From: an uncultured Fibrobacteria bacterium
GTDB taxonomy: Bacteria > Fibrobacterota > Fibrobacteria > UBA11236
Assembly (NCBI GenBank): GCA_963716395.1
Contig: OY970309.1
Location: 1,024,001 to 1,088,000 of the forward strand
Reading direction: 5' to 3'
DNA length: 64,000 nt
In this document: piece by piece, positions 19,230 to 42,443 of the stretch
Layout of the letters: every line of letters begins with the position of its first letter
Position numbering within the stretch: the first letter of the stretch is position 1
Position numbers and translations under genes: made by a program
Notes under the pieces: generated by a model
The model's database searches: none
Told to the model about the DNA's origin: nothing
What the model saw: only the letters and a program-made list of their open reading frames with translations

Positions 19230-19306
19230 GCACCAGTAGCTCAGCTGGATAGAGCGTCGGCCTCCGAAGCCGAAGGTCGCAGGTTCGACTCCTGTCTGGT
19301 GTACCA
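19230..19306 (+). tRNA. tRNA-Arg (anticodon CCG)
   Basis: Acceptor stem GCACCAG/CTGGTGT, D arm AGCTCAGCTGGATAGAGC, anticodon arm TCGGC-CTCCGAA-GCCGA, GTTCGA T loop, encoded CCA. Confidence 0.97.
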
Positions 19307-27839: not shown

Positions 27840-29801
27840 TCAAAAACGATAGGCCAGTTTGCCGGCGAAAGAGCGGGGAATTCTCTGGCCGACGGTGGTG
27901 CCCAACTGAAATTGGGGATCCTCGTCATTGCCCAAATTGTACCCGTACACCGAAGCTTCGAGGTGATCGTGGGTCCAGGCCAGGCCGGCGTCATAGGTGA
28001 AGCGGGCCGGCACATGCGGATTGGGGAGGCTGGCTACGTAGTAACCGTCGCCGTTCAATTGAAAGCCCGCGGGTAAGTCCATCATGGATTGCAGCGAAGC
28101 CTGATGCGATGGATCATTCGCCTCGCCCAGGGGATTGGCGAAGTCCGTCACACCGGGATTCGCCCAGAAATGGGTTTTCAGAAAGTTGTAGCCCGCGCGC
28201 AGGCGCCACCACGAGGTGGCCTGAAATTCGCCCGAGAGTTCGATGCCGCGCGAATTTCCCTCGAGTCCGTTTTTGAATTGAATGGTGGGCGGACTGAGGG
28301 CGGTCAGCTCCCAAGTACGGAGATCATGGTAACGATTGTAATAGGCGGAAGCGGAAAACGAGAGCGACGGTAATGGTTGCGCGCGGTAACCCAACTCGTA
28401 GGCCAGCAATTTTTCCGCCTGGAATTCCGGGCCTCCGGCCAGGCGGGGAACGGAGGCGGGCACGGGCGGCGTGGGTGCGTAGTAGTCGACGTCGATGCGG
28501 CTCGGAGTTCGCACCGCACGCGAAACCGCGCCCCACACCATTTGCCGCGCATTAAGGGTCCACGCCAGTCGCGTCGACGGCTGGAGATTGAAACCATCAT
28601 AATCTTCGTGCTCCAGCTTGGATCCCAATGTCGCCTTGAGCCGATCCGGAACCAAGGAAATCTCATCCTGAACAAAGACATTGAAGATGTGCAAATCTTT
28701 GCGGCCGGGCAAAAACGAGAAGTAGGCGAAATTCGTGACGTCGTCCTGCATCAGGCGGTATCCCGCCCCCCACATCAGATTCTGGCCGGGAAGCAATTCG
28801 AAACGATGGTGAAAATCGATATCGTAGGTTTTTAAATCTTCGGTGAAGGCCGACGCCGAATCCAAAGCGGCCTTGCGCCAGGTGTGGTCGAAGTACACCT
28901 GCAATTGCATATCCGCCCGGGGCGAAAATTTGCGCACCCAGCGCCCGATCACGTTTTGTCCGTTCAAGTCCACGAAACCGGAGCCGGGCTGATCGATAGA
29001 CCCGTCGTATAAATCTCCCTGCGCCGTGAGGTTGTCGGCTTCGGAGCGTCCCCAATCCATACGAAAACCGCCTTGCGTCACGCCGATGCCGTTGGCGCCG
29101 TCTTTCCCGTTGGGCAGCAAGGTGCCGTCTTGATCGATGCGCTGGCCATAAACCCGGTATTGGGCGTTCGGGCCCAGGCGTCCGCCGAATTGCGTTTGGC
29201 CGAAATCACGCTCGAAGTTGCCGCCGCCGCCCTCCAAGGCAAATCCCTGTGTGTCTTTCGCTTTCTTGGTGATGATGTTAATCACGCCGTTGACGGCATT
29301 GCTGCCCCACAGCGTGCCGCCGGGTCCGCTGATCACTTCGATGCGATCCACGTCTGCCAGCGGTACGTATTGGGCGTCCCAAAAAACGCCCGAATACAAC
29401 GGGGTATAAACGGTGCGGCCGTCGATCAGCACCAGCAGCTTGTTGGCGGCATTGCTGTTGAAACCGCGCGCGCTAATGGCCCAGGTGCGTGAATCGATTT
29501 GCGCCACTTCGAGGTTCGAGGCCAGGCGCAAGGCCTGCGGCAAGGTCACGGCTCCCGAGCGCCGGATGTCTTCGGCCGTGATGACCTGGATCGCCGAAGG
29601 GGCTGCGCTCAGTTTTTCCGCATGTTTGGAAACCGACGTCACCTTGATGTTCATCAGATCCTCGAGGCTCATTTGTTTGAGCGCTTCGGCCGCCGGCAAG
29701 GTATCGGCGCTCTGGGACCACGCTCCCTGCAAGGCGGCCGCCAAGACCACCACATTGTGGATCGCCAGCTTTTTTCGGAGCGGGAAAAAGGGGTTTTCCA
29801 T
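27840..29801 (-). CDS. TonB-dependent receptor
   Basis: SLEDLMNIKVTSVSK, plug motifs LVLIDGR and RIEVISGP..LWG.NA.NGVINIITK, terminal Phe. Confidence 0.93.
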   Translation of the reverse strand: MENPFFPLRKKLAIHNVVVLAAALQGAWSQSADTLPAAEALKQMSLEDLMNIKVTSVSKHAEKLSAAPSAIQVITAEDIRRSGAVTLPQALRLASNLEVAQIDSRTWAISARGFNSNAANKLLVLIDGRTVYTPLYSGVFWDAQYVPLADVDRIEVISGPGGTLWGSNAVNGVINIITKKAKDTQGFALEGGGGNFERDFGQTQFGGRLGPNAQYRVYGQRIDQDGTLLPNGKDGANGIGVTQGGFRMDWGRSEADNLTAQGDLYDGSIDQPGSGFVDLNGQNVIGRWVRKFSPRADMQLQVYFDHTWRKAALDSASAFTEDLKTYDIDFHHRFELLPGQNLMWGAGYRLMQDDVTNFAYFSFLPGRKDLHIFNVFVQDEISLVPDRLKATLGSKLEHEDYDGFNLQPSTRLAWTLNARQMVWGAVSRAVRTPSRIDVDYYAPTPPVPASVPRLAGGPEFQAEKLLAYELGYRAQPLPSLSFSASAYYNRYHDLRTWELTALSPPTIQFKNGLEGNSRGIELSGEFQATSWWRLRAGYNFLKTHFWANPGVTDFANPLGEANDPSHQASLQSMMDLPAGFQLNGDGYYVASLPNPHVPARFTYDAGLAWTHDHLEASVYGYNLGNDEDPQFQLGTTVGQRIPRSFAGKLAYRF

Positions 29802-29954
29802 TTCAGAATCCCTCGGGAAGGTGCTGTGTCGGTAAGCATACCGCCTTCCGAGACAAAATGTCAAAACCGTCTTGCTGGAATTTCGGAGCCGGAATGGATA
29901 ACCTTCATGTTACCCTGAGGGTAGACGAGGTCACATAACTGAGAGGATAAATGA

Positions 29955-30014
29955 TACGCGGTTTCGTGGTGCACCTCGAGGGATTCGAACCCCCAACCCT
30001 TGGCTTCGAAGGCC
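29955..30014. repeat. att site: duplicated 3' part of tRNA-Arg(UCG) plus 12 bp
   Basis: TACGCGGTTTCGTGGTGCACC...CTTCGAAGGCC is identical to 41430-41489. Confidence 0.96.
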
Positions 30015-30052
30015 GAAAGGGGGTGCAAAAAATCGCGTGATTCCGGTTAGAT

Positions 30053-31135
30053 TCAGCAAACTTTTGCCGCTCCAACCTCGATAGTGTCCACTTGGCGTCC
30101 ACTACCCAATCCAAATCTTACCAACCCCAAAGCATTTTTGCCAGCGCGATGGTAGTACGTCTTCAGCATGTTGGTTCGCCATCCCGCCACTTGCATCACA
30201 ACTTGTTCGGGGGTGCCAGCGTCAAGCAGCGCCGACGCGGAAACATGCCTTGTGTCGTGGAATCGGAAGTCTTGAATCCCGGCCAGCCGAAGACACCTTT
30301 TCCATGCCGTCTTGAAATCCCCTAACGGGTGGTAGGTCCCTTTTTCGAAACGGTAAAAGAGATAAGGGGAGTCGGCGGGAATACCCCGGAAATAGTCCTT
30401 CATATCCGGCGGAACAGGTTTCCAAATGCCTTCCTGGTTTTTAGTGGTCCCATTGCGAACCCGTATAGCCATGTTGAACAAATCCAAATCCTCTTTTCGC
30501 ATGCGGATCAATTCCGACTTCCGGCAAGGAACTTGCAAGGCAAAACGAACAATGGGGCCAAGGTGCGGAGCCTCCGCGTCGATAATGTTTTGAAGCCGCA
30601 TCTTATCGTATTCCGTCAAAACCCTATCCCTTGGAACCTCCCGATGTTTAGGGAAGCGCGCGCGTGTAATGGGGTTTTTGTCCAATAATTCGAGCCGAAC
30701 GCAGAGATTGAAAGCCGCATTGACCATTTGCATGAGACGGTTCAGGCTGGCCAGGGAAAGGGGTTTGTGAAGCCGGGAGGGATTGGAGCGGAGAATTTTT
30801 AAAAGGGATTCCAGCCTATCGGGAAGGGCCGGAATGGGAACATCGCCCAAATGCTGGCGAAGTTGATTGTAGCGGCAAAGGTGGGGAACTGAAAATGGTG
30901 GGCTTTTTTCCCGGTAGATTTGCAGAACATCGCCGAAGGTATCCGGCTTGTGCGGGGAAATAAAGGCCGCACCTTCTTTTAGCTCGCGGCGAAGTTCTAG
31001 GAAACGCTCCTCCGCCTTGGGTTTGGTGCCGTGAAAGGTTTCGCGCTTGCGAAGTTCTTTGCCCGCCTTGCGGACGCGAACATCAAGTGACCATTCGTTA
31101 GAAGAACCGGAGATTTTCCGAATGTTGAGACCCAT
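30053..31135 (-). CDS. int: Tyrosine recombinase/integrase
   Basis: Catalytic set CRKSEL, TTKN, FHDTRH, GW, YY; start at 31135 (AAGGA SD 6 nt upstream) or 31141. Confidence 0.95.
   Translation of the reverse strand: MGLNIRKISGSSNEWSLDVRVRKAGKELRKRETFHGTKPKAEERFLELRRELKEGAAFISPHKPDTFGDVLQIYREKSPPFSVPHLCRYNQLRQHLGDVPIPALPDRLESLLKILRSNPSRLHKPLSLASLNRLMQMVNAAFNLCVRLELLDKNPITRARFPKHREVPRDRVLTEYDKMRLQNIIDAEAPHLGPIVRFALQVPCRKSELIRMRKEDLDLFNMAIRVRNGTTKNQEGIWKPVPPDMKDYFRGIPADSPYLFYRFEKGTYHPLGDFKTAWKRCLRLAGIQDFRFHDTRHVSASALLDAGTPEQVVMQVAGWRTNMLKTYYHRAGKNALGLVRFGLGSGRQVDTIEVGAAKVC
30084..30102. promoter_or_regulatory. Putative integrase arm-type binding sites (left)
   Basis: GTGTCCAC-TTG-GCGTCCAC; the same octamer pair occurs at 41323-41341. 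Confidence 0.7.
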
Positions 31136-31174
31136 AGCCATTCCTTAGCTATGGGTGCCCTGGGCAGGCTCTTC
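31130..31174 (-). promoter_or_regulatory. int leader: 9-bp hairpin over the start codon plus a segment complementary to 41282-41302
   Basis: ACCCATAGC/GCTATGGGT perfect inverted repeat with the SD in the loop. Confidence 0.65.
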
Positions 31175-31205
31175 TAACATAATCCAAAATCCCCGAAAGT
31201 GAAAA

Positions 31206-31418
31206 TCATTTTTCCAAAAGAAATTTTCCGGCAAGAAGACGCTTTTCGACTTCGACGCGCCGGTATCGCCAAAGTCGCCCGACCTTCACTTGGCCCGGCA
31301 CGCGCCGGGCCTGGGTTTGGGTCACCACGAATTTGAGGGACATATTCATTTTGGCGGCTAATTCCTTCGGGGTTAAAAAATCCGAAGCGTTCATTTGCGC
31401 CGGTTCCATTTGTTCCAT
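31206..31418 (-). CDS. Excisionase/AlpA-like HTH protein
   Basis: FLTPKELAAKM...VPGQVKVGRLWRY; GGAGG SD; directly upstream of int. Confidence 0.85.
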   Translation of the reverse strand: MEQMEPAQMNASDFLTPKELAAKMNMSLKFVVTQTQARRVPGQVKVGRLWRYRRVEVEKRLLAGKFLLEK

Positions 31419-31420
31419 TT

Positions 31421-32188
31421 CTATTCCTCCGCCGTTTCAGTTTTAAGCCATGATTTTTTAAAGGTCAAAGTGCCGCCGTTCTCCAACACCCGTTTTTCCA
31501 ATTCCGATTTTAATGCAATGAAATCAATGTTTTTGCGGAATACCCAAACGGATAGGCCAGAAGAATTAGCCCGTTTCTCAAGCCAACCTTCGGGACTAAT
31601 CACCTTGTCGAAATATCGCTGGGTTACTTTCGGGCTACCATGACCTATTTGGCGGGTTAGAAATTCCGCGCCGGAATTTACGGCCTCTTCTTGGGTTGAT
31701 CCCCCTTGCCCACCAACATGCTGGAAAAGCCAAAGGCGGAAATAGGCATCCATCAATCTTGAATTAGGGATTGAAACGGATTCCTCCCTATGGGTGAAAG
31801 GATTTCCGGTACTATTTCTCTCTACTTTAGAAGGGGAATCGGCCAATGGAGTCACCCGGCCAGCCTTTTCCCCCTCCCTCTCCCCCTGAGTCACTAGGGA
31901 ACCGGAGGCAAGGGTTTTGGCCGCGCTGGCAAGGTATCCGGGCAGGGTTTCGGCTGTCAGTAGGCGGCACCTGGAGCGCGCCCGATTACCTTCAGCCGAA
32001 TTACAGGCCCGGCAAAGAAGGTGAAGGTTTTCCAAACGGTTATTTTGCTTGCTGCCGTCCAGGTGGTCAAGGGTTCTTTCCCTTGGCTTGAACTGGGTTT
32101 TATGGCATAGCAGGCAAATATCGCCATCGCGGTGAATGACAGAATCCAAAAGCGTCCGATAAAGTTTGATATTCATGCGCTTAGGCAT
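31421..32188 (-). CDS. HNH-endonuclease-domain protein with unknown C-terminal domain; start uncertain
   Basis: RDGDICLLC...TLDHLDG...NNRLENLHLLCRACN. Confidence 0.8.
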   Translation of the reverse strand: MPKRMNIKLYRTLLDSVIHRDGDICLLCHKTQFKPRERTLDHLDGSKQNNRLENLHLLCRACNSAEGNRARSRCRLLTAETLPGYLASAAKTLASGSLVTQGEREGEKAGRVTPLADSPSKVERNSTGNPFTHREESVSIPNSRLMDAYFRLWLFQHVGGQGGSTQEEAVNSGAEFLTRQIGHGSPKVTQRYFDKVISPEGWLEKRANSSGLSVWVFRKNIDFIALKSELEKRVLENGGTLTFKKSWLKTETAEE

Positions 32189-32341
32189 TGTATTCGCCCC
32201 CATGCTCTCTTGTGTTAAACATGACCACAATCAACCATCAAGAGGCCGGAAGTGCGATACCATGGCGGTTGATGTACCGACATCTATCGCTCTTTAAATT
32301 GCCCTGGGAGGCTACTATTGCAGGGTAATTGGGAGTATGAA

Positions 32342-33205
32342 ATGGACGATGCAATAGAGGACAGCGCAAATAAAGAAAGTCTTACCGAGACAGGAAAAAA
32401 ACTGAGCAAGGAAGAGCTCTATAAAAGATATCATGACATCCCCGATGGTTTTTCGGATTGGGTGTATTGGTTTGTTGACCGAACGGATGAAAAAGCAAAG
32501 GAACTTGTAGACATTCTTTTCAAGAGGTTTTATGAGGCTGAGTATTCCAGCCCTGAGCAAGAGGAAAAAGCCGGGAAAAAATTCGACTCGGATTTTGACG
32601 AGAACATTTTGGCGCATTGGAAAAATGCGCGTTTCAATTTTGAATTAACCGTCCTTTATAGGATGAAGCAAGAACGGAAGTTTCTATTTGGAACCGAGGA
32701 TTTTATTTGGGGCAAAGCCTTCCTTGAAAAGAAGGTGCAATGGTGTCAAGACAGCATTGAAAACAAGAAAAAGAATGCGGGCCAAATCGGCCTTGACGGA
32801 AATACTTTACGTTCCCGGATGAAATGGCGCGGGTACAATGCGGCATTTGTTTCGTTTTTGAATTACTTGGCTGAGAAGCAACTGATTGATCCAAATTGGG
32901 TAAACGTATCAGAAGGTTCGGCGGTTGAAAAAGCGGATACGAAAATCATTTGGCGCGGAAAGGAAAATCAATTGGCCGTCTTATTCCAATGGCTTGCCGC
33001 GATTAGCCCGCCGATGATAACCGAAGACTGGCAGCAAATCGCAAGTACAAATTTTGAAAAGCCCGACGGAAAGCCCATTTCAAAAAATCTCTCCAAGTTG
33101 GCGGGGAACAAGAACGGGCGGAAGCTAAACGAGTGGTTTAAAGAAACGACTAGCAAATTAAATTCCGTTCTTGGGCGAAAGCAAAATCTTGTCCCCGAAA
33201 GTTGA
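32342..33205 (+). CDS. Hypothetical protein with two RteC-like W.G repeats
   Basis: GGGAG SD; MKWRGYNAAFVSFLNYL and IIWRGKENQLAVLFQWL repeats. Confidence 0.55.
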   Translation: MDDAIEDSANKESLTETGKKLSKEELYKRYHDIPDGFSDWVYWFVDRTDEKAKELVDILFKRFYEAEYSSPEQEEKAGKKFDSDFDENILAHWKNARFNFELTVLYRMKQERKFLFGTEDFIWGKAFLEKKVQWCQDSIENKKKNAGQIGLDGNTLRSRMKWRGYNAAFVSFLNYLAEKQLIDPNWVNVSEGSAVEKADTKIIWRGKENQLAVLFQWLAAISPPMITEDWQQIASTNFEKPDGKPISKNLSKLAGNKNGRKLNEWFKETTSKLNSVLGRKQNLVPES

Positions 33206-33270
33206 ATTAAAGGCTTTTTCTAAAATCCTACTTAGAATTGTGACGCCATAAAATCCGAGAACAATAACCC

Positions 33271-35561
33271 ATGCCCCGACTGACTGAAACCGAACAGCAA
33301 GAAATCATCCGCTTCGTTGAAGCCGGAAAACCCCTGCCCGACAAATACCGCTTTCTGCTATTCGACGACAAACGCGAGGTGGAACTGATTTGGAACGGCA
33401 AAACCAACGAGGTTTGCAATATCGTTTTGCCCTTCCAGGTAATCGAGCAGGTGGACGAACCCCGCGCCGAAAAGCCCGAAGACACCAAGCAACAAACCGA
33501 CATTTTCGCCACCGATGCGCGGGGCCGTCAACTCAAGGGTTGGACGAACAAACTCATTTGGGGCGACAACAAATTGATCTTGTCGTCGTTAAAAAACGGG
33601 CCGCTACGCGATGAAATCGAAAAGCAAGGCGGGCTTAAACTCATTTACATCGACCCGCCTTTTGACGTGGGCGCGGATTTTTCAATGGACATTGAAATCG
33701 GCGACGATACTTTCACCAAGAAGCCCGGCATCTTGGAAGAGATCGCTTACCGTGACACTTGGGGCAAAGGCGCGGATTCTTTCATCTCTATGATTTATGA
33801 GCGGCTGATGATTATGCGGGATTTGCTGGCGGAAGATGGAAGCATTTATGTGCATTGCGATTATCGCGTGAATAGTCTTATTCGTGCGGTTCTTGAATGA
33901 AATCTTCGGGAGTTCAAATTTCCGTAAATGAAATAATTTGGAAACGTACGTGTTGGTGCTACAGCGCGGTTCATGAATCGAATAGATTCGGGATTTGTAC
34001 CGATACGATTCTTTATTTCTCAATATCTGAAAAATCGAATCTAAATGTTCAGTACAATCTCAATTCAAATGAATATCAGGAATATATTGAAACCAGGTTT
34101 ACAAACATTGATTCGAATGGTCGGAACGTTATCAGCCAACAAGTGTGGTCAATCCTGGATATCGGCCGAATCTCATATACGATTATAAAGGCTATAAATC
34201 CCCACCAAATGGTTGGATGATTTCCAAAGAAAAAATGGAGAATGGGATCGCGAAGGTCGACTTCACTTTCCTGAAAACAAGGACGCAAGAATTCGCCGAA
34301 AAAGTTTTACTGATGAACTCAAGGGTATGCCTATTCAAAATCTTTGGACGGATATTTCCGAAATCAATTCGCAAGCTATCGAGAGAATTAATTACCCCAC
34401 CCAAAAGCCCGAAACCCTTCTTGAACGATCATCAAATCATCTTCAAACAAGGCGATCTTAGTTGCCGATTTCTTCTGCGGCTCCGGCACCACGGCGGCGG
34501 TGGCGGAAAAGTTGGGGCGCAAGTGGATCACAAGCGACCTCGGCAAGTTCGCCATCCACACCACCCGCAAGCGATTGATCGGCGTACAGCGTGAACTCAA
34601 GGCCGCTGACAAAGATTACCGTGCTTTTGAAATCCTCAACCTGGGAAAATACGAACGCCAGCATTATATCGGCGTCAATCCCAACCTCCGCGAAGAAGAA
34701 CAGCAAAAGCAATTGGCGGCAAAAGAAAAAGAATTTCTTGATCTGATTCTCCGCGCCTACCGGGCCGAAAAAACCGAAGGGTTCACCACCTTCCACGGCA
34801 AGAAAGCCGGGCGGCTGGTTTCCGTGGGGCCGGTCAATATGCCGGTGACGCGCCTTTTTGTGGAAGAGATAATTCTGGAATGCCGCAAGAAGCATATCAC
34901 CAAGGTGGACATTCTCGGCTTTGAATTTGAAATGGGATTATTCCCCAATGTGCTGGACGAAGCCCGCGCCAAGGGCATCGACATCGCCCCCAAATACATT
35001 CCCGCCGAAGTGTTCGACAAGCGGGCCGTGGAAAAGAACCAAGTGGTTTTTCACGATGTTTCCTTTATCGAAGTAAAACCGCATGTCAAAAAGAACGGCG
35101 TGGCGGTGGAATTAACCGACTTCTCGGTTTTTTATTCGCAAGACTCCATCGCAGCCGCCGAAACTTCGCTCAAGGAAAAGGCCAGCAAAATCGTGGTGGA
35201 AAAAGGCCAAATCGTGAAGGTAAGCAAAGACAAGAACGGCATTGTCAGCCGCGAAGTGCTGACCCCGAAATGGACGGATTGGATCGATTATTGGTCGGTG
35301 GATTTCGACTTCGAGAGCAAGCGCGAAATCGTGCGCGTGAAAAACGAGCAAAGCGGCGAATGGGAAGAGCGCTGGACGGGCGATTACATCTTTGAAAACG
35401 AATGGCAATCCTTCCGCACCAAAAAAGATCGCAAGTTGGAACTCACCAGCGTCTTTCACGAATGCGATCCCGGACGGCGCAAGCTGGCCGTCAAGGTGGT
35501 GGACATTTTCGGCAACGACACCATGACCATAGTCGAAGTGAACGTGGGCGGGAAAAAATAA
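33271..35561 (+). pseudogene. Type III RM-like DNA methyltransferase (Mod), multiply frameshifted between about 33890 and 34470
   Basis: LIWGDN, YIDPPF (motif IV), EIIWKR, YPTQKPE, DFFCGSGTT (motif I) spread across different frames. Confidence 0.88.
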
Positions 35562-36370
35562 TGGCGAAAATCGAAGTCCAGGGCACAGAAATATCCATCA
35601 TCAACGTGAACAACCACGACTATATCTCGCTAACGGACATGCTCAAGGCCAAGGACGGAGATTTCTTTATCTCTGACTGGCTCCGGAACCGGAACACGGT
35701 GGAGTTTCTCGGTATTTGGGAAAGGGTGTATAACCCGAATTTTAATTATGGCGAATTCGCCGTAATTAGAAATCAAGCCGGTTTGAACAGCTACAAAGTC
35801 AGCGTCAAAGAATGGGTCGAGAAAACCGGGGCCATTGGACTAAAGGCAACCGCCGGACGGTATGGCGGTACTTACGCGCACAAGGACATAGCCTTTGAAT
35901 TCGGCATGTGGATCAGCGCCGAGTTCAAAATTTATCTGATAAAAGAATTTCAACGGCTTAAAGAAGAAGAAGGCAAACAACTCGGCTGGGACATCCGGCG
36001 CACCCTGGCCAAAATCAATTACCGGATTCACACCGACGCCGTCAAAGAAAATTTGATTCCTTTGGAGCTGACTCCCCGACAGATGAACTTGATTTACGCA
36101 TCGGAAGCCGACGTGTTGAACATGGCCCTGTTCGGTACAACCGCGAAGGTTTGGAGGGATAAAAATCCGGGTCAAAAGGGGAATATCCGGGACTACGCGA
36201 ACATAACCCAGCTTGTTTGTCTCTCCAACCTGGAAAACCTAAACGCCCTGTTCATTCAGGAAAAAATGCCGCAAGCAGATAGACTGCGTAAGCTGAACCA
36301 AATCGCCATCCATCAAATGAAACTTTTAACCGAAGATCCGAAAATCGGAAAAATTGCGGGGAAGAAATAA
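35561..36370 (+). CDS. KilA-N domain protein
   Basis: DYISLTDM, WLRNRNTVEFLGIWE, GRYGGTYAHKDIAFEF motifs; TAATG coupling on both sides. Confidence 0.9.
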   Translation: MAKIEVQGTEISIINVNNHDYISLTDMLKAKDGDFFISDWLRNRNTVEFLGIWERVYNPNFNYGEFAVIRNQAGLNSYKVSVKEWVEKTGAIGLKATAGRYGGTYAHKDIAFEFGMWISAEFKIYLIKEFQRLKEEEGKQLGWDIRRTLAKINYRIHTDAVKENLIPLELTPRQMNLIYASEADVLNMALFGTTAKVWRDKNPGQKGNIRDYANITQLVCLSNLENLNALFIQEKMPQADRLRKLNQIAIHQMKLLTEDPKIGKIAGKK

Positions 36371-39069
36371 TGGCCTTGCATAAGGACTTCCCCTTTTCAC
36401 CTCATGCCATTTTAGATCCGGCCATTCGCTGGTTTCCGGCGGACGAGGCCTTGCGCGAGTCCAGCATGGAAAAACTCATGCCGCCTTTGGTGCCGGAATT
36501 GCGCAAGCTGGTGAAGGCATGGCGCGACGGCGGTTATGCCGGGGCCACGGAAACAAGCAGAAGCCTGCTCAATTGGTGGTTCACGACTCCGCATTTGTTG
36601 CCCAAAGGCGACGGCAACATGATTGAATTCCAATATTTCTTTGCCCAACGCGAAGCCTTGGAAACCATCGTCTATCTGTACGACGTGGTGGGAGTGAAGG
36701 ACAAATTCGACCTGATGCGCTTCGATAGCTCCGGCGCTGTGTCGGCGGGGATGTTCGACGAAACGTGGCGACGCTTCGTGGTTAAAATGGCGACCGGCGC
36801 GGGTAAGACCAAGGTGTTGAGTCTGGCCCTGGCCTGGAGTTTTTACCACAAGCTCTACGAGCCGGAATCGCAACTATCGCGGAACTTTCTGGTAATCGCT
36901 CCCAACATCATCGTCCTGGATCGCATTTACAAGGATTTCCAGGGCCTTCGCATTTTCTTTGACGACCCCATCATTCCCGACGACGGCTTTGACGGGCGAA
37001 ATTGGCGCGACGATTTCCAATTGACCTTGCATGTCCAGGACGAAGTCAGAATCACGCGCCCCACCGGCAATATCTTTCTGACCAACATCCACCGCGTTTA
37101 TGCCGGAGACGACATTCCCGCTTCGCCCGATGATGAAGACACGATGGATTATTTTCTTGGGTAAAAGGCCCACCGGCGCGACCACCGATTCCAAAGTGGA
37201 TTTGGGGATGATCGTGCGCGACATCGAAGAGCTAATGGTTCTCAACGACGAAGCGCACCATATTCACGATCCGCGCATGGCTTGGTTCAAATCCATTGAA
37301 GACATCCATAACCGGCTAAAGCAAAAAGGATCGGCGCTGTCTTTGCAAGTGGACGTGACCGCCACGCCCAAGCACAACAACGGCGCTATTTTCGTGCAAA
37401 CCGTGGCCGATTACCCTCTGGTGGAAGCCATTTGGCAAAACGTGGTTAAACATCCGGTCTTGCCCGATGCACCCAGCCGCGCCAAGTTGATCGAGCGTCA
37501 GAGCGCCAAATACACCGAAAAATATGCGGACTACATTAACCTTGGCGTGATCGAATGGCGCAAAGCCTATGCCGAACACGAAAAGCTGGGAAAGAAAGCC
37601 ATTCTGTTCGTGATGACGGACGATACCCGCAACTGCGACGACGTGGCCGAATATCTGGAAGGCAACTATCCCGATTTGAAAGGCGCGGTGCTGGTCATTC
37701 ACACCAAGAAGAACGGTGAGATTTCCGAATCCACTTCGGGCAAGGACAAGGAAGAGTTACAGAAATTGCGCGACCAAGCCAATGCAATCGACGGTTTGGA
37801 CAGCCCCTACAAGGCCATTATTTCCGTGATGATGCTCAAAGAGGGTTGGGACGTTCGCAACGTCACCACCATCGTCGGCCTTCGCGCCTATGCCGCCAAA
37901 AGCAATATCCTACCGGAGCAAACTTTGGGGCGCGGCCTGCGCAAAATGTATCCCGGCGGAGTGGAAGAATATGTCAGCGTGGTCGGCACGCAATGCCTTC
38001 ATGGATTTCGTGGAATCCATAAAGGCCGAAGGCGTGGAATTGGAGCAAAAGCCGATGGGCGAAGGCACCAAGCCGAAAACCCCGCTTGTGGTTGAAGTTG
38101 ACAAGGAAAACGAGAAAAAAGACATCGACGGCCTTGGACATCGAAATCCCGGTTCTGACACCGCGCGTTTATCGGGAATACAAGAACCTGACCGATCTGA
38201 ACACCGACGCATTAAATCACGTCAAGGTCGCCTACCGGCAATTCAGCGAAGAAGAACAGCGGGAGATCGTTTTCAAGGACATCACCACCGGCGAAGTGAC
38301 GCATACCACGATTCTTGAAACGGCGGGCATTGCCGATTATCGCAGCGTGATCGGCTATTTCACGCAAACCATCATGAAGGATTTGCGCTTGGTCAGCGGC
38401 TATGACGTTCTCTACGGCAAGGTCAAAGCGTTTGTGCAAGACGAGCTATTTGATCGCGCCGTGGAATTGGAAAGCCCGAACACCTTGCGCAACCTTTCGG
38501 AATTGGCCGCCACAAAAACTTTGATTGAGACTTTCAAAAAAGCGATCAACGCTCTAACCGTGCAGGACAAAGGCGACGCCGAAATCCGCGACACCATCAA
38601 GCTACGACAGACGCGGCCTTTTGTGGTCAAAGATCAGGGCTACCTAATCCCGAAAAAGAGCGTCTTCAATCGCATCATTGGAGACAGCCATTTTGAATTG
38701 CTTTTTCCAAGTTTCCTGGAAGCGTGCGACGACGTGGTCTCCTATGCCAAGAATTATTTTGCCGTGAATTTCAAGCTGGACTACGTGAACGCAGATGGCG
38801 ACATCTCCAACTATTACCCGGATTTTCTGGTCAAGCTGGCCGACAAGCGGATTTTCATCGTCGAAACCAAAGGTCAGGAAGACCTAGACGTGCCGCAAAA
38901 AATGGAGCGGCTTCGGCAATGGTGCGAAGACATTAACCGGGTACAGAAAAACGTGAAATACGACTTTGTTTACGTGGACCAAGAGAGCTTTGAGAGATAC
39001 AAGCCGGGGTCGTTCCTGCAATTGGTTGAGGGGTTTCGGGAGTACAAAGTGGAAGGGGAAGGGGAATAA
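36370..39069 (+). pseudogene. Type III RM-like restriction subunit (Res; SF2 helicase plus PD-(D/E)xK), frameshifted near 37160, 37990 and 38130
   Basis: MATGAGKT, DEAHH, EGWD, EQTLGRGLR, YYPDF...VETK in successive frames. Confidence 0.88.
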
Positions 39070-39120
39070 GATTGGAATGAGAAATAATTCAAGCCTCGGT
39101 ATAACATGGCCGCTTAAACG

Positions 39121-39151
39121 GTCCATGTTAAAGGCGGCCTTTAACATGGAC
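39121..39151. promoter_or_regulatory. 14-bp perfect inverted repeat upstream of fic (probable operator)
   Basis: GTCCATGTTAAAGG-CGG-CCTTTAACATGGAC; extra TAACATG copies at 39102 and 39183. Confidence 0.6.
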
Positions 39152-39186
39152 AAAGCGCGCATGACTTATGGAAGGTCGGCTATAAC

Positions 39187-40389
39187 ATGAAAACCCCACA
39201 GGTTTTCAAAACGTCGGGGCGGGCCGGGCAATATCTCGCACAACCCACAGGGTATCGGGCCTTTATCCCTGCGCCGTTACCGCCGAATCCGTCGCTAAAA
39301 CTGGAAGGCGCATTTCAAACCATGCTTTCGGATGCAAGCCTGGCTTTAGGCCGCCTGGACGGTTCAGTATTGACCCTCCCCCATCCCGACCTATTCGTGT
39401 TCATGTATGTGCGCAAGGAGGCCGTGCTCTCTAGTCAAATCGAAGGCACCCAAAGTTCGCTGCAAGACCTACTGGCCGCTGAGGCGCGCATTTTGTCGCC
39501 GGATCGTCCCAGTGATGTGCGGGAAGTGATCAACTACATCGAAGCCATGAACTACGGCTTGAATCGGCTGAAGGATCTACCGGTTTCAGTACGCATGATT
39601 AAGGAAATCCACGAAAAGCTCCTTCGGGGCGTTCGTGGTGGCCGGCTTACTCCCGGTGAATTACGGAGTAGCCAGAATTGGATAGGCCCTTCCGGGTGTT
39701 CCCTCAATGAAGCGACCTTCGTCCCTCCTCCCCCCGATCAGTTGCCGAATGTCTTGGGTGAACTGGAAAAGTTCATACACAGCCGGGAGGATATGCCGTT
39801 ACTTATCAAGGTGGGATTAGCCCACGCTCAATTTGAGACCATTCATCCTTTTCTGGACGGCAATGGTAGAGTGGGTCGTCTGCTCATTAGCTTTTTGCTA
39901 TGCGAGCGAGGAGTGTTGCACAAGCCCGTCCTTTACCTGTCACATTATCTCAAGCGTCACAGGCAAGAATACTACGATAGGCTCCAGGCGATACGCGATT
40001 CGGGAGACTGGGAAGGGTGGCTTGAATTTTTTTTGAAGGGAATCATCGAAGTCAGCAAGCAAGCTACCGAAACCGCACGGAGCATTCTGAGATTACGCGA
40101 AAATCTGCGCGATAGCATTACCCGGAATCTTGGCGGAGTTGCCGGCAATGGTCTCAAGGTGCTAGAACACCTTTTCCGGCACCCGATAATAAGCGTCAAT
40201 GAGGTAAAGACGTTGACCGGTACAACATTCGCCGCGGCTAACCAATTGGTGCAACGGTTAGTAGAGTACCGGGTCATTCGGGAGATGACTGGACAAGCGC
40301 GGCATCGCCGTTTCCAATTCGACGATTATGTGGCCCTATTTATCGATGAAACAGGTGGAGGAGCGAGAGCATTGCAAGCGACGGAATAG
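39187..40389 (+). CDS. Fic-family protein (class II, probable C-terminal HTH)
   Basis: HPFLDGNGRVGR catalytic motif; SSQIEG inhibitory motif. Confidence 0.93.
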   Translation: MKTPQVFKTSGRAGQYLAQPTGYRAFIPAPLPPNPSLKLEGAFQTMLSDASLALGRLDGSVLTLPHPDLFVFMYVRKEAVLSSQIEGTQSSLQDLLAAEARILSPDRPSDVREVINYIEAMNYGLNRLKDLPVSVRMIKEIHEKLLRGVRGGRLTPGELRSSQNWIGPSGCSLNEATFVPPPPDQLPNVLGELEKFIHSREDMPLLIKVGLAHAQFETIHPFLDGNGRVGRLLISFLLCERGVLHKPVLYLSHYLKRHRQEYYDRLQAIRDSGDWEGWLEFFLKGIIEVSKQATETARSILRLRENLRDSITRNLGGVAGNGLKVLEHLFRHPIISVNEVKTLTGTTFAAANQLVQRLVEYRVIREMTGQARHRRFQFDDYVALFIDETGGGARALQATE

Positions 40390-40439
40390 TTCAAGGCTCG
40401 TTCCCCAAGTATTAAAAGTCGTATTTGATGTGGCCAATC

Positions 40440-41060
40440 TCAAAAGAAAATCTCGTTTGCAAGTTCGCCAAACTTCATCCTCATCGCTTGAATGGATCGG
40501 CCCGCAAAGTCATTGTGTTTGTCGATTAACCGCTCGAAAGTTTTCCAACGCATCCACTTTGGCTTATTACCGGGAGGGTTCACCATTCCCGGCTCCCAAC
40601 CTAAACGCGTTCGGATTTTGTCCGCCTGGTTTGATAAACGATCCCAAGCTCCTTGGCGCGAACTGAGATAGGTCAGACGATAGCAATGGCGACAGGCGAA
40701 ATACTTGTCGCCCAAATGGAGAATTGCCACACGCCGACCACAGCCTACAATCGGGCACCGAAACCAAACCCGATGGCCGCCGTAAGTGCCCCGTGTAGTG
40801 TCCAGGGTGATCGGTTCCTCGATGCTTTCCCATTCACCCCCGCCTTGGCGGATACGGTAGATTAACGTCACTTTTCCTTCTTCAGTTTTGACCTGAATAT
40901 CCGCCACTTTCTTGCCGTCCACGGTCCATTGCCATCCAAACCAATTAAAGGACGTAAGGTAACCCTCCCGTTGCCAGCGGCGCACGTCTATACGACGGCA
41001 AGACTCAACGGTATTGCGAGCGCCATAGTGCCAGTAATTTCCGCTACCTAGTCCGCCCAT
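40440..41060 (-). CDS. Conserved mobile-element hypothetical protein with zinc ribbon
   Basis: MGGLGSG start, WFRCP..CGRR, FACRHC, KPKWMRWKTF motifs. Confidence 0.75.
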   Translation of the reverse strand: MGGLGSGNYWHYGARNTVESCRRIDVRRWQREGYLTSFNWFGWQWTVDGKKVADIQVKTEEGKVTLIYRIRQGGGEWESIEEPITLDTTRGTYGGHRVWFRCPIVGCGRRVAILHLGDKYFACRHCYRLTYLSSRQGAWDRLSNQADKIRTRLGWEPGMVNPPGNKPKWMRWKTFERLIDKHNDFAGRSIQAMRMKFGELANEIFF

Positions 41061-41322
41061 AAGATTTTGCCGCAATTATTTGGTTAACTGCTATTTCGGG
41101 AACCAGTTCTTTTTTAAGACTGGCTAAATCCCAAAGCGATAGCCAAAGTTCACCCTTGAAAGGTTTGGAAACACTCCCGTTTAAGTGTCCAGTTCCTGCC
41201 TTGTTTCCCCTGGGATTTAGTCGGCAATGGTTGAGCCTAAACCGGGCTGGAAAGCCTGTCTCTATTGGTTTAGCCGCTACCGAAGACCTGCCCAAGGCAC
41301 CCGGTGAAACGGTTGTTTTTGG

Positions 41323-41341
41323 GTGTCCACAAAGCGTCCAC
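41323..41341. promoter_or_regulatory. Putative integrase arm-type binding sites (right)
   Basis: GTGTCCAC-AAA-GCGTCCAC. Confidence 0.7.
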
Positions 41342-41429
41342 TTTCTCGGAGTTGTGCGGGGTATTTGGGGGGTTGAAAGGCTTATCACCTTGACCCCCAA
41401 TGCCTGAATTTTCCCGGAATCTTTTCTTT

Positions 41430-41489
41430 TACGCGGTTTCGTGGTGCACCTCGAGGGATTCGAACCCCCAACCCTTGGCTTCGAAGGCC
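41430..41489. repeat. att site overlapping the 3' part of the intact tRNA
   Basis: 60/60 identity with 29955-30014. Confidence 0.96.
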
Positions 41490-41518
41490 AGTACTCTATC
41501 CAGTTGAGCTAGAGGTGC
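41442..41518 (-). tRNA. tRNA-Arg (anticodon UCG)
   Basis: Minus strand GCACCTCTAGCTCAACTGGATAGAGTACTGGCCTTCGAAGCCAAGGGTTGGGGGTTCGAATCCCTCGAGGTGCACCA. Confidence 0.95.
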
Positions 41519-41684
41519 CTGCCGGGAAAAGGTAGTCGCCTTTTGCACGGCTCTCCGCAACGGCTTTTCCGCAGTCCGCTTGTCTCCCGTTCAGATCGCA
41601 AAGCTGGAATCGTTTGCTTTTTCTTGCCCGGATACACGCAGGGGCCAAATGGAAAACCGGGCGGCCTGGTTCCATACGTTGAGA

Positions 41685-42443
41685 TTACGGGTTCTCCGTT
41701 TGGACCGATGTGGCGTTAAAGGCTTTGAAGAAATCGGCCGCCAAGCGCTGGTATAAATCCGGGTTATGTTCGAGGTCGATGACGGCCAGCGGCATTCCCG
41801 ATCGGTCCGCATAGGTTTCGGCCGTATCCAGGGATTCGCCGCGGGCCCAAGGCGTCGGGTAAAACTTGACCTGCAAATGGTACGCATCGCCCACCTGCCA
41901 CAAGTCGAGTTGATTTTGATCATAGATGAGGTTTAAGCGGTAGATATCCGGCAACTGGAAAAGAAAGCGCGTTTGTCCGGCGCCCACGTCCAAAGTTCCC
42001 TTGATGTATCCGTGATCGGCGAAGGAGGCAAAATCAACGGTGTCGGGATTCAAGGGAATGTGATCGGGGACGCGGCTTTTGAATTTCACCTGTTCCCAGG
42101 CGATGCCGGGCACTTGCAGGGGCGGCAATACCGCCGTCGTATCCTGATGGGTGAAATCCACGGGAATCCCCAGCGAATCCACGGCGCTCCACAAGGTGCC
42201 GTTGGTTTTTTCCACCGTGCGATACGTGATGACCACCACGTTTAAATAAAACTGGAGGATGCGCACCGAGTCTGCGGGCGCCGCGCGGTTCTGGGTTTTT
42301 GCCAGCGGCGGCGGGTTGGCCGTATAGTCGATGCTGAAATCCGCCGTGACTTCCTGATCCTTGCCGGGATTGCCCACCTCCGTGAAGCAGGCTGCCAGCA
42401 GGCAGGCCGTGAGAACACGGAGAATGCGTCCGGCGCGTTTCAA
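41685..42443 (-). CDS. Hypothetical lipoprotein coupled to the TIGR02147-like gene
   Basis: Lipobox LAAC followed by TEVGNP. Confidence 0.7.
   Translation of the reverse strand: MKRAGRILRVLTACLLAACFTEVGNPGKDQEVTADFSIDYTANPPPLAKTQNRAAPADSVRILQFYLNVVVITYRTVEKTNGTLWSAVDSLGIPVDFTHQDTTAVLPPLQVPGIAWEQVKFKSRVPDHIPLNPDTVDFASFADHGYIKGTLDVGAGQTRFLFQLPDIYRLNLIYDQNQLDLWQVGDAYHLQVKFYPTPWARGESLDTAETYADRSGMPLAVIDLEHNPDLYQRLAADFFKAFNATSVQTENP

Follow-up and report, generated by a model that had tools for sequence, protein, structure and literature searches.

A leader/anti-leader pair in tRNA-integrating elements of Fibrobacterota, most likely an RNA-level sensor of the excised state

Excised islands that do not replicate are lost unless they reintegrate, and an arriving circle needs its integrase before its own regulators exist. 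How an integrase gene might register that its element is a circle is the question raised by an 11.5-kb island inserted in tRNA-Arg(TCG) in a 64,000-nucleotide stretch of DNA from an uncultured Fibrobacteria bacterium (GenBank assembly GCA_963716395.1, contig OY970309.1, positions 1,024,001 to 1,088,000; hereafter the window, whose own numbering is used throughout). The tyrosine recombinase gene of this island, int, sits at the end distant from the intact tRNA gene and is transcribed toward the adjoining attachment (att) repeat, so that a transcript made after excision would run over the joined site, attP, into the sequence inside the other end. A first-pass annotation had proposed an excision-state RNA switch, in which a hairpin buries the int start codon and an anti-leader at the far end opens it once the two ends are joined. 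Comparison with relatives shows a conserved leader/anti-leader pair, which is most likely an RNA-level sensor of the excised state. The proposed switch draws support from hairpin covariation, recurrent complementarity, a bias toward G-U mismatches, the geometry of the circle and the predicted opening of the hairpin in most relatives, whereas the window's own hairpin is predicted to stay closed and terminators lie on the path in relatives. Circle-specific activation is plausible, and weakest for the window's own copy.

The integrase leader and its inverted copy at the far end

The int transcript of the window folds into a 9-bp hairpin (Table 1) with an AAGGA Shine-Dalgarno sequence in its loop and the ATG at 31135-31137 in its 3' arm, and our local fold agrees with the annotated one. 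The leader copy (L, 31153-31174) and the reverse complement of the far copy (F, 41282-41302) align with 20 matches, one transition and one 1-nt gap, bearing out the complementarity that had been claimed. Three further details of the claim were recovered as described: the single substitution is a G-U pair on the int-sense strand, the L-F duplex shares 4 nt (ACCC) with the 5' arm of the hairpin, and the path from the int stop codon to F across the attP junction measures about 225 nt (98 + 127, from the coordinates). F lies 128 nt inside the far att copy, just past a tandem repeat, and the ungapped core of L, CCTGCCCAGGGCACCC, begins 7 nt past the -10-like hexamer TATGTT.

The pair is specific to these two sites. 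In the 3.75-Mb genome, exact matches to GGGTGCCYTGGGCAGG occur only at L and F, and eight other matches carry two mismatches. When the 13.7 kb upstream of int were scanned for inverted matches to the leader, the top score was 31 and the second 19; a score of 31 was equalled by none of 232 leader/far-end pairs drawn from different elements.

To place the window among its relatives, we collected integrase homologues with 34-59% identity, which are found in 41 of 296 Fibrobacterota genomes. Up to 40 kb was fetched around about 55 related int genes, all oriented with int on the plus strand; most of the relatives that are not described below stop at a contig edge, with the far end beyond reach. An inverted copy of the element's own leader is present in 18 elements, 75-242 nt inside the far att copy (the window and those with our handles G013, G024b, L139, L142, L146, L147, L148, L150, L154, L155, L156, L159, L163, L165, L166, L167 and L173). 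These represent 16 distinct pairs, one being shared by L142 and L150 and another by L163 and L166. The L/F sequences are unrelated between elements, so that the complementarity, whose conservation the first-pass annotation had suggested comparing, recurs with different sequences. Within an element the copies are 12-20 nt long, asymmetric and 85-100% identical, and the integrases of different elements are 40-59% identical. Identity within elements combined with unrelatedness between them is therefore the signature of complementarity and not of a protein consensus site. The 18 elements are related, and the architecture is inherited rather than reinvented in each.

Of the 16 elements tested, 13 score above all 232 mismatched leader/far-arm controls. 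A direct-orientation control with the same leaders gave scores of 14-25, and scans of the whole upstream sequence placed the best inverted match at the far arm. RNAduplex energies of 70-nt leaders against 450-nt far arms were dropped, as the null was too broad (mean -35.8, standard deviation 6.5) and long gapped interactions dominated; wobble-weighted helix scoring, in which long AT-rich helices push the null maximum to 35, was used for duplex display only. The best matches in L149 and L144 and the first match in L156 lacked att context and were judged to be chance; the true far arm of L156 was located later.

The surroundings of F follow a common plan. From the att core inward come, in many elements, the terminator of the tRNA gene, then a CAAATACCC-like motif, tandem direct repeats and, 10-50 nt farther in than these, the inverted leader copy. 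Tandem repeats of 8-12 nt stand on both att arms of every related element and differ in sequence from one to the next (GTGGAC.., GCGTAC.., GTGAAGACG.., CCGGACAC.., CCGGTACA.. and GGTACAC..); those analogous to the window's were located in L142, L146, L150, L155, L159, L163, L167 and G013. Their presumed role is that of arm-type Int sites, co-evolving with the N-terminus of the integrase, and the leader copy is unrelated to them in sequence. The CAAATACCC(C/T)G-like motif between the att core and the tandem repeats (about 41357-41368 in the window; also in G013, L142, L150, L173, L155, L156, L148 and L166) is, unlike L and F, conserved across divergent elements and is a candidate site for a conserved protein, such as an excisionase or a host factor. 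A possible inverted counterpart of this motif, in the form of GGGG(T/C)AT-like strings, occurs near position -35 in several int promoters. No conserved gene follows F, the cargo differing between elements. L156 (G050:C99) carries, downstream of its near att site, another stretch of 170 nt that resembles a far arm (84% identity) and has an F-like copy of its own. In L165 (G291:C38), a tRNA-Met gene downstream of int contributes its 5' half as the att repeat instead of the usual 3' part.

So far the L/F pair is seen in a single integrase clade of Fibrobacterota. No pair of this kind was found next to att at about 60 loci whose distant integrases belong to other phyla; these loci were taken from among the integrase-alignment matches listed in genome contigs, mostly 25-36% identical. 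A search of six incomplete genomes (G023, G021, G012, G018, G019 and G011) for a second leader copy, using 22-26-nt patterns with at most three mismatches, found the leaders only; this search is insensitive, and the window's gapped pair would fail it.

Some leaders of close relatives can be set beside the window's far copy. The leader CCTGCCCAAGGCACCC of L016 and L023 (in G023 and G021) is the exact complement of 41287-41302, and the G behind the window's single G-U wobble is an A in both. The C/U changes that set the related leaders L211, L226 and L174 apart from their group would leave pairing with the group's known F intact; leader L138 has one change that would not.

Evidence for pairing as RNA

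The leader is built alike throughout the family. The open reading frame (ORF) directly upstream of int matches HTH_17 in 10 of 10 relatives tested, six of them over the Pfam curated cut-off. Within the 36-88 nt between it and int, a -10-like hexamer, in many cases TATATT, is followed by a short leader and by a hairpin that pairs CAU with AUG and carries GGA or AGG in its loop. In an alignment of 13 close relatives, 87% of cells in the stem are paired, compared with 27-38% when the partners are slid; five of the nine pairs vary on both sides (ATAGC/GCTAT, ATCAC/GTGAT, ATCGC/GCGAT, ATTGC/GCAAT, ATAA/TTAT), and the covariation score was matched by none of 500 shuffles. The hairpin was also present in the minimum free energy fold of all 11 leaders folded. 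Since the stem varies and yet stays complementary, we take the hairpin to be an RNA structure that sequesters the start codon. A metagenome scan with a family-specific pattern (GDFK, 17 residues, HDTRH) returned 38 loci, all with similar leaders and hairpins; the upstream sequence is too short in every one to reach the far end. One contig (G046:C141, 58270-60554) carries two int genes that converge, 195 nt apart.

The mismatches within the L/F pairs are distributed unevenly between the strands. Read on the int-sense strand, 19 substitutions comprise 15 G-U, 2 A-C and 2 transversions (one-sided binomial P = 0.0012). At internal positions only, G-U exceeds A-C by 13 to 1 (P = 0.0009); leaving out G013 and L147, which are weak pairs, gives 10 to 2 (P = 0.019), and a hand recount of 12 strong pairs gave 8 to 1. 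Scoring treated all mismatches alike, so the alignment did not produce this bias. The pair with the lowest score, that of G013, has three mismatches, every one of them G-U, leaving 16 of 16 positions paired.

The position of L is equally consistent. In 18 of 18 elements it starts 5-8 nt after a TAnnnT hexamer, close to the predicted transcription start, and in 17 of 18 by automatic count it enters the 5' arm of the hairpin; the stem that this count missed, in L159, is visible in a two-strand fold. Because L overlaps the 5' arm, F mimics the AUG-bearing arm, plus an extension. The idea that F might mark the start of a second promoter was rejected, as a -10-like hexamer at 5-8 nt, in either direction, adjoins it in only 1 of 16; for the same reason F looks like read-through sequence.

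Folding supports competition between the two structures. When leader and F segment were folded as two strands, the L-F duplex gained 8-16 kcal/mol over the separate folds and, in 9 of 11 elements, took the place of the hairpin wholly or for the most part. Transcripts of about 1.4 kb were then folded at full length in integrated and circle form for four elements. The hairpin probability fell from 0.87 to 0.00 in L167 (L-F pairing in the circle 0.97), from 0.91 to 0.56 in L155 (0.40) and from 0.99 to 0.50 in G024b (0.82), and went from 0.96 to 0.94 in the window (0.79). L-F pairing was zero in every integrated form folded, and in the window it dropped below 0.001 once F was shuffled. Opening is thus predicted in three of the four, the window being the exception, and in the family as a whole these models make a switch thermodynamically plausible. 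The architecture, the co-variation of the pairs, the strand bias of their mismatches and the thermodynamic feasibility of pairing are what these comparisons establish.

A proposed mechanism and its alternatives

The tRNA-integrating elements of Fibrobacterota compared here, the window's island included, form a family with a fixed recombination module of a small HTH_17 gene, an int promoter and a short int leader. Of this leader, the first 12-20 nt (L) usually extend into the 5' arm of the start-codon hairpin. As long as the element is integrated, 5-39 kb separate L from F, which lies upstream of int. Excision, and only excision, places F past the int stop codon, about 200-450 nt downstream and on the same strand, and an int transcript crossing attP would then carry both. 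We propose that L and F pair as RNA, F imitating the AUG-bearing 3' arm, and that the hairpin would thereby be removed or weakened. Int translation, and perhaps mRNA stability, would be altered only in the circle, favouring integration or reintegration. We infer that F is transcribed from int and pairs with L in vivo, and only infer that the effect is activation. RNA pairing in some form is probable; its more specific version, a leader/anti-leader pair linked in cis by excision, is a tentative assignment that we hold at a little short of an even chance.

A number of results weigh against this proposal. Some pairs are weak: L163 was reached by 5 of the 232 controls, L147 by 16 and G013 by 106, and L156 and L165, found later, score 24 each, where the 95th percentile of the null is 21 and the 99th is 26, so that three to five pairs (G013, L147 and L163, plus L156 and L165) are weak by score. 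L160 has a matching arm-type repeat but its inverted copy is not significant (20, against a background of 21). In G024a, L141, L144, L149 and L151, neither the far att site nor F was found within 21-39 kb upstream, and the pair may not be universal in the family. The strand bias has a possible mutational source, in that the known excess of C-to-T changes on the non-transcribed strand has the same sign; under a 2:1 mutational bias, the hand-estimated P rises to about 0.05. The position of L is not exclusive to an RNA function either, because the leader is short and an operator just downstream of the promoter would likewise cover +1 to +20. In the folds, the 18-bp hairpin of L163 persists in the two-strand model, and in the window F strips only 4 bp and leaves a 7-bp AU-rich stem over the A and U of the AUG. 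The opening of the window's own hairpin by F, as first annotated, is accordingly not what the full-length models predict, the probability that it is closed hardly differing between the two states; for this copy, it is arguable from the models that pairing only weakens the stem or acts in another way by sequestering the 5' end.

The main objection comes from predicted terminators. Strong intrinsic terminators (-13 to -23 kcal/mol plus a U-run) lie between core and F in L150, L173, L155, L167, L159, L139 and L156, weaker terminator-like hairpins in the same interval in L142, L146, L154, L163, L165 and L166, and a terminator between int and core in L146 and L147, where int and tRNA converge; in L147 none was found between core and F. 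A scan of the whole path from int to F in the circle was free of terminators only in the window, G013, G024b and L148, and at least 9 of the 18 elements have one predicted on the path. An int transcript would therefore arrive at F in many elements only by reading through. This comes close to int transcription ending before attP, an outcome that the first-pass annotation had named as speaking against its switch. In elements that rebuild a co-oriented tRNA, the strong terminators lie a few nucleotides past the tRNA 3' end. Such terminators are what a rebuilt tRNA gene needs, and by their predicted position they would, while the element is integrated, also shield F from read-through out of the tRNA gene.

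Terminators between core and F are irrelevant to an explanation at the level of DNA, in which L and F are two copies of an operator bound by the HTH_17 excisionase-like protein, by Int or by another regulator. One copy would occupy +1 to +20 of the int promoter and the other would stand beside the arm-type sites, about 1.5 kb away in the circle, and binding, perhaps with looping, would act on int transcription, by repression or tuning, or would shape the recombination complex. L is where operators commonly lie, F belongs to the conserved att-proximal module, the gene immediately preceding int encodes an HTH_17 protein in the window as in the relatives tested, and the recombination directionality factors Vis of P4 and TorI of KplE1 reportedly also repress int promoters. 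The window's core TGCCCAGGGCA reads as a palindrome, but most pairs are without dyad symmetry, and copies that are this long and asymmetric, near-identical within an element and unrelated between elements do not resemble protein sites, which tend to be shorter and more degenerate. A bias of 15 to 2 toward G-U on one strand is not expected from DNA-protein recognition; moreover, F is not at a promoter and, seen from the core, comes only after the arm-type sites, which is the wrong place for a bending factor. We regard an operator pair as unlikely, though well worth bearing in mind. The strand bias would also arise, through rG-dT and rU-dG wobbles, if the 5' end of the int transcript acted as a guide and paired with DNA, namely the F strand in the far att arm, which would tether the nascent int mRNA and new Int beside the arm-type sites or mark the arm for synapsis. 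Such a guide, which if true would be an RNA-guided component in a tyrosine-recombinase system, seems to us very improbable.

RNA pairing could also follow another logic, which we consider distinctly unlikely. F might act in trans, as a read-through trailer of the tRNA in the integrated state or as a transcript of its own, or the duplex might be an RNase III-like processing site that, as in lambda sib, destabilises or truncates int mRNA, with a negative effect. An intact, co-oriented tRNA stands just upstream of F in 14 of 18 elements, including the window, and the window's island supplies no terminator between the two, so read-through from tRNA-Arg is likely there and should yield F RNA while the island is integrated. 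Perfect duplexes of 16-20 bp are seen, a length within the size range of RNase III substrates, and in the window, where the hairpin is predicted not to open, another consequence of pairing is needed. On the other hand, the strong terminator placed precisely between tRNA and F in seven elements reads as insulation, no promoter-like hexamer adjoins F, and L146, L147, L154 and L165 have no co-oriented tRNA promoter able to transcribe F, which leaves int as the only evident element-encoded source of F RNA in these four. F also mimics the AUG-bearing arm consistently, which fits competition with the hairpin better than a freely placed cleavage site. Finally, the pair might have no function, being a relic of duplication or of element-end formation, or a chance match. 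Taken alone, the window offers a single 21-nt match, and a looser scan of it is unimpressive (three matches at up to three mismatches, 0.83 expected, with 6 of 100 shuffles as high). Across the family, however, 16 distinct pairs of unrelated sequence occupy the same relative position; a relic would decay, yet the copies keep their identity despite complete sequence turnover, and the sequence flanking L and F is not shared, so that the pair is no segmental duplication. An absence of function is scarcely credible.

If the preferred reading, an RNA pair linked in cis by excision, is correct, a leader unlocked only by excision-joined sequence would be a self-contained sensor of topology that needs no repressor. 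It would also be a clean instance, in nature, of RNA regulation gated by recombination, maintained throughout a bacterial phylum despite sequence turnover. The L/F pair marks both ends of the element and so aids the delimitation of islands in fragmented genomes; should the mechanism hold, it would also be usable as a compact excision reporter.

The island and its relation to known systems

The island has the features of a tRNA-integrating element with a tyrosine integrase, namely a catalytic domain, direct repeats of the tRNA 3' part at both ends and repeats on both att arms (Table 1). The H-D-x-R box of Int is kept in the alignment of relatives, and its sole relative of solved structure, matched at E 1.9e-07, is a XerC-like recombinase. 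Translation likely begins with the ATG at 31135-31137, giving MGLNI... as in relatives; a second in-frame ATG lies at 31139-31141 (ORF 30053-31141). The -10 hexamer is a prediction only, as a consensus promoter scan did not list it. From their sequence, the tandem repeats are presumed to be arm-binding sites of Int, and the 18-nt inverted repeat arms, which would flank the 60-nt core in attP, may be core-type sites. The left flank of the island had no DNA match in 11 genomes of the same genus, hence an empty site is not demonstrable there.

Table 1. Features of the island and its ends (window coordinates)
Feature	Position	Strand	Remarks
att repeat, int end	29955-30014		displaced 3' part of tRNA-Arg; exact 60-nt direct copy of 41430-41489 (100% identity); island boundary
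Inverted-repeat arm	30039-30056		18 nt, 83% complementary to 41404-41421
int, tyrosine recombinase	30053-31137	minus	PF00589, E 4.8e-15, 56.2 bits (cut-off 27.1)
Tandem repeat, presumed arm-type	30085-30104		GTGTCCAC nnn GCGTCCAC (plus strand); inside int 3' end; direct copy of 41323-41342
Start-codon hairpin	31130-31156	minus	9-bp stem ACCCATAGC/GCTATGGGT (also given as ACCCAUAGC/GCUAUGGGU)
Leader copy L	31153-31174	minus	22 nt, GAAGAGCCTGCCCAGGGCACCC in int sense
Predicted -10 hexamer of int promoter	31176-31181	minus	TATGTT, read from sequence; between HTH_17 gene and int
HTH_17 protein, excisionase-like	31206-31418	minus	70 aa; PF12728, 27.5 bits (cut-off 27); directly upstream of int
Far copy F	41282-41302	minus	GGGTGCCTTGGGCAGGTCTTC in int sense; complementary to L
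Tandem repeat, presumed arm-type, far arm	41323-41342		between att core and F
CAAATACCCC motif	41357-41368	minus	between core and tandem repeat; similar motifs at the same place in many relatives, by eye
Inverted-repeat arm, second	41404-41421		partner of 30039-30056
att repeat, far end	41430-41489		3' part of intact tRNA-Arg(TCG) gene; island boundary
tRNA-Arg(TCG), intact	41442-41518	minus	Rfam tRNA match

Between these ends, the cargo (31421-40389) encodes an HNH protein, an N6/N4 methylase fragment, a KilA-N protein, a ResIII helicase followed by a TnsA-like endonuclease domain, and a Fic protein with a helix-turn-helix; several ORFs are without a Pfam match, and by its gene content the cargo looks like a defence island. 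Pfam scans of the island ORFs gave no support for the RteC-like protein mentioned in the first-pass annotation. An Rfam 15 scan of 29500-42000 on both strands, at E up to 1, returned only the tRNA and one chance match on it. A second tRNA gene, tRNA-Arg(CCG), lies at 19230-19306, 10.6 kb to the left of the left-hand att repeat.

Our literature search, restricted to main texts outside subscription journals, turned up no account of an integrase leader with a mirror copy on the far att arm; several known systems share part of its logic. Circles of insertion sequences (IS) form junction promoters, so that circularisation creates a new state of recombinase expression, and in IS110 a bridge RNA, the 5' non-coding RNA of the recombinase gene, pairs with element and target sequences. 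Those systems use transposases or DEDD recombinases and, for the bridge RNA, RNA-DNA pairing in a synaptic complex, whereas here a tyrosine integrase acts with ordinary arm-type sites and nothing shows that RNA meets DNA.

In principle, the nearest known system is the retroregulation of int by sib in phage lambda. There, sib is a local hairpin that is cut by RNase III, with a negative effect on int. F has no sequence similarity to sib and no evident structure of its own: instead of forming a self-contained hairpin with neighbouring sequence, it is complementary to the 5' leader, with which it would pair over about 1.3-1.6 kb. It would compete with the start-codon hairpin there, and the predicted effect in most relatives is exposure of the AUG. 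One account, citing Schindler and Echols 1981, describes int mRNA from pL as lowered by the downstream element sib (PMC5300877). The systems are alike in that a sequence across attP joins the 3' end of the int transcript in one recombination state only and acts post-transcriptionally (PMC5300877). By coordinates, all 18 elements have this sib-type geometry.

Pairing between the two ends of one mRNA also has precedents. The 3' untranslated region (UTR) of icaR is said to pair with the Shine-Dalgarno region and to repress; the 3' element described here pairs with the sequestering arm, and its 3' UTR would be supplied or removed by site-specific recombination. For icaR of Staphylococcus aureus and hbs of Bacillus subtilis, 5'-UTR/3'-UTR pairing within one mRNA is described (PMC3868564, PMC5737220), and the likeness is that long-range pairing of mRNA ends governs translation initiation or stability (PMC3868564, PMC5737220). 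Complementarity between leader and 3' non-coding sequence is likewise kept in relatives of the window, with 16 co-varying pairs, although the two would share a transcript in the circle only.

ICEclc follows the same biological logic: excision puts an outward-facing promoter, Pcirc, upstream of intB13, and int expression rises in the circle, which is thought to aid reintegration (PMC5812530). Excision rewires int expression there and would do so here; Pcirc acts on transcription from the 5' side of int, whereas the family described here would act from the 3' side, with a proposed translational effect through RNA pairing (PMC5812530). If the leader/anti-leader reading is true, it represents a third solution, beside the circularisation promoter of ICEclc and the destabilising 3' hairpin of lambda sib.

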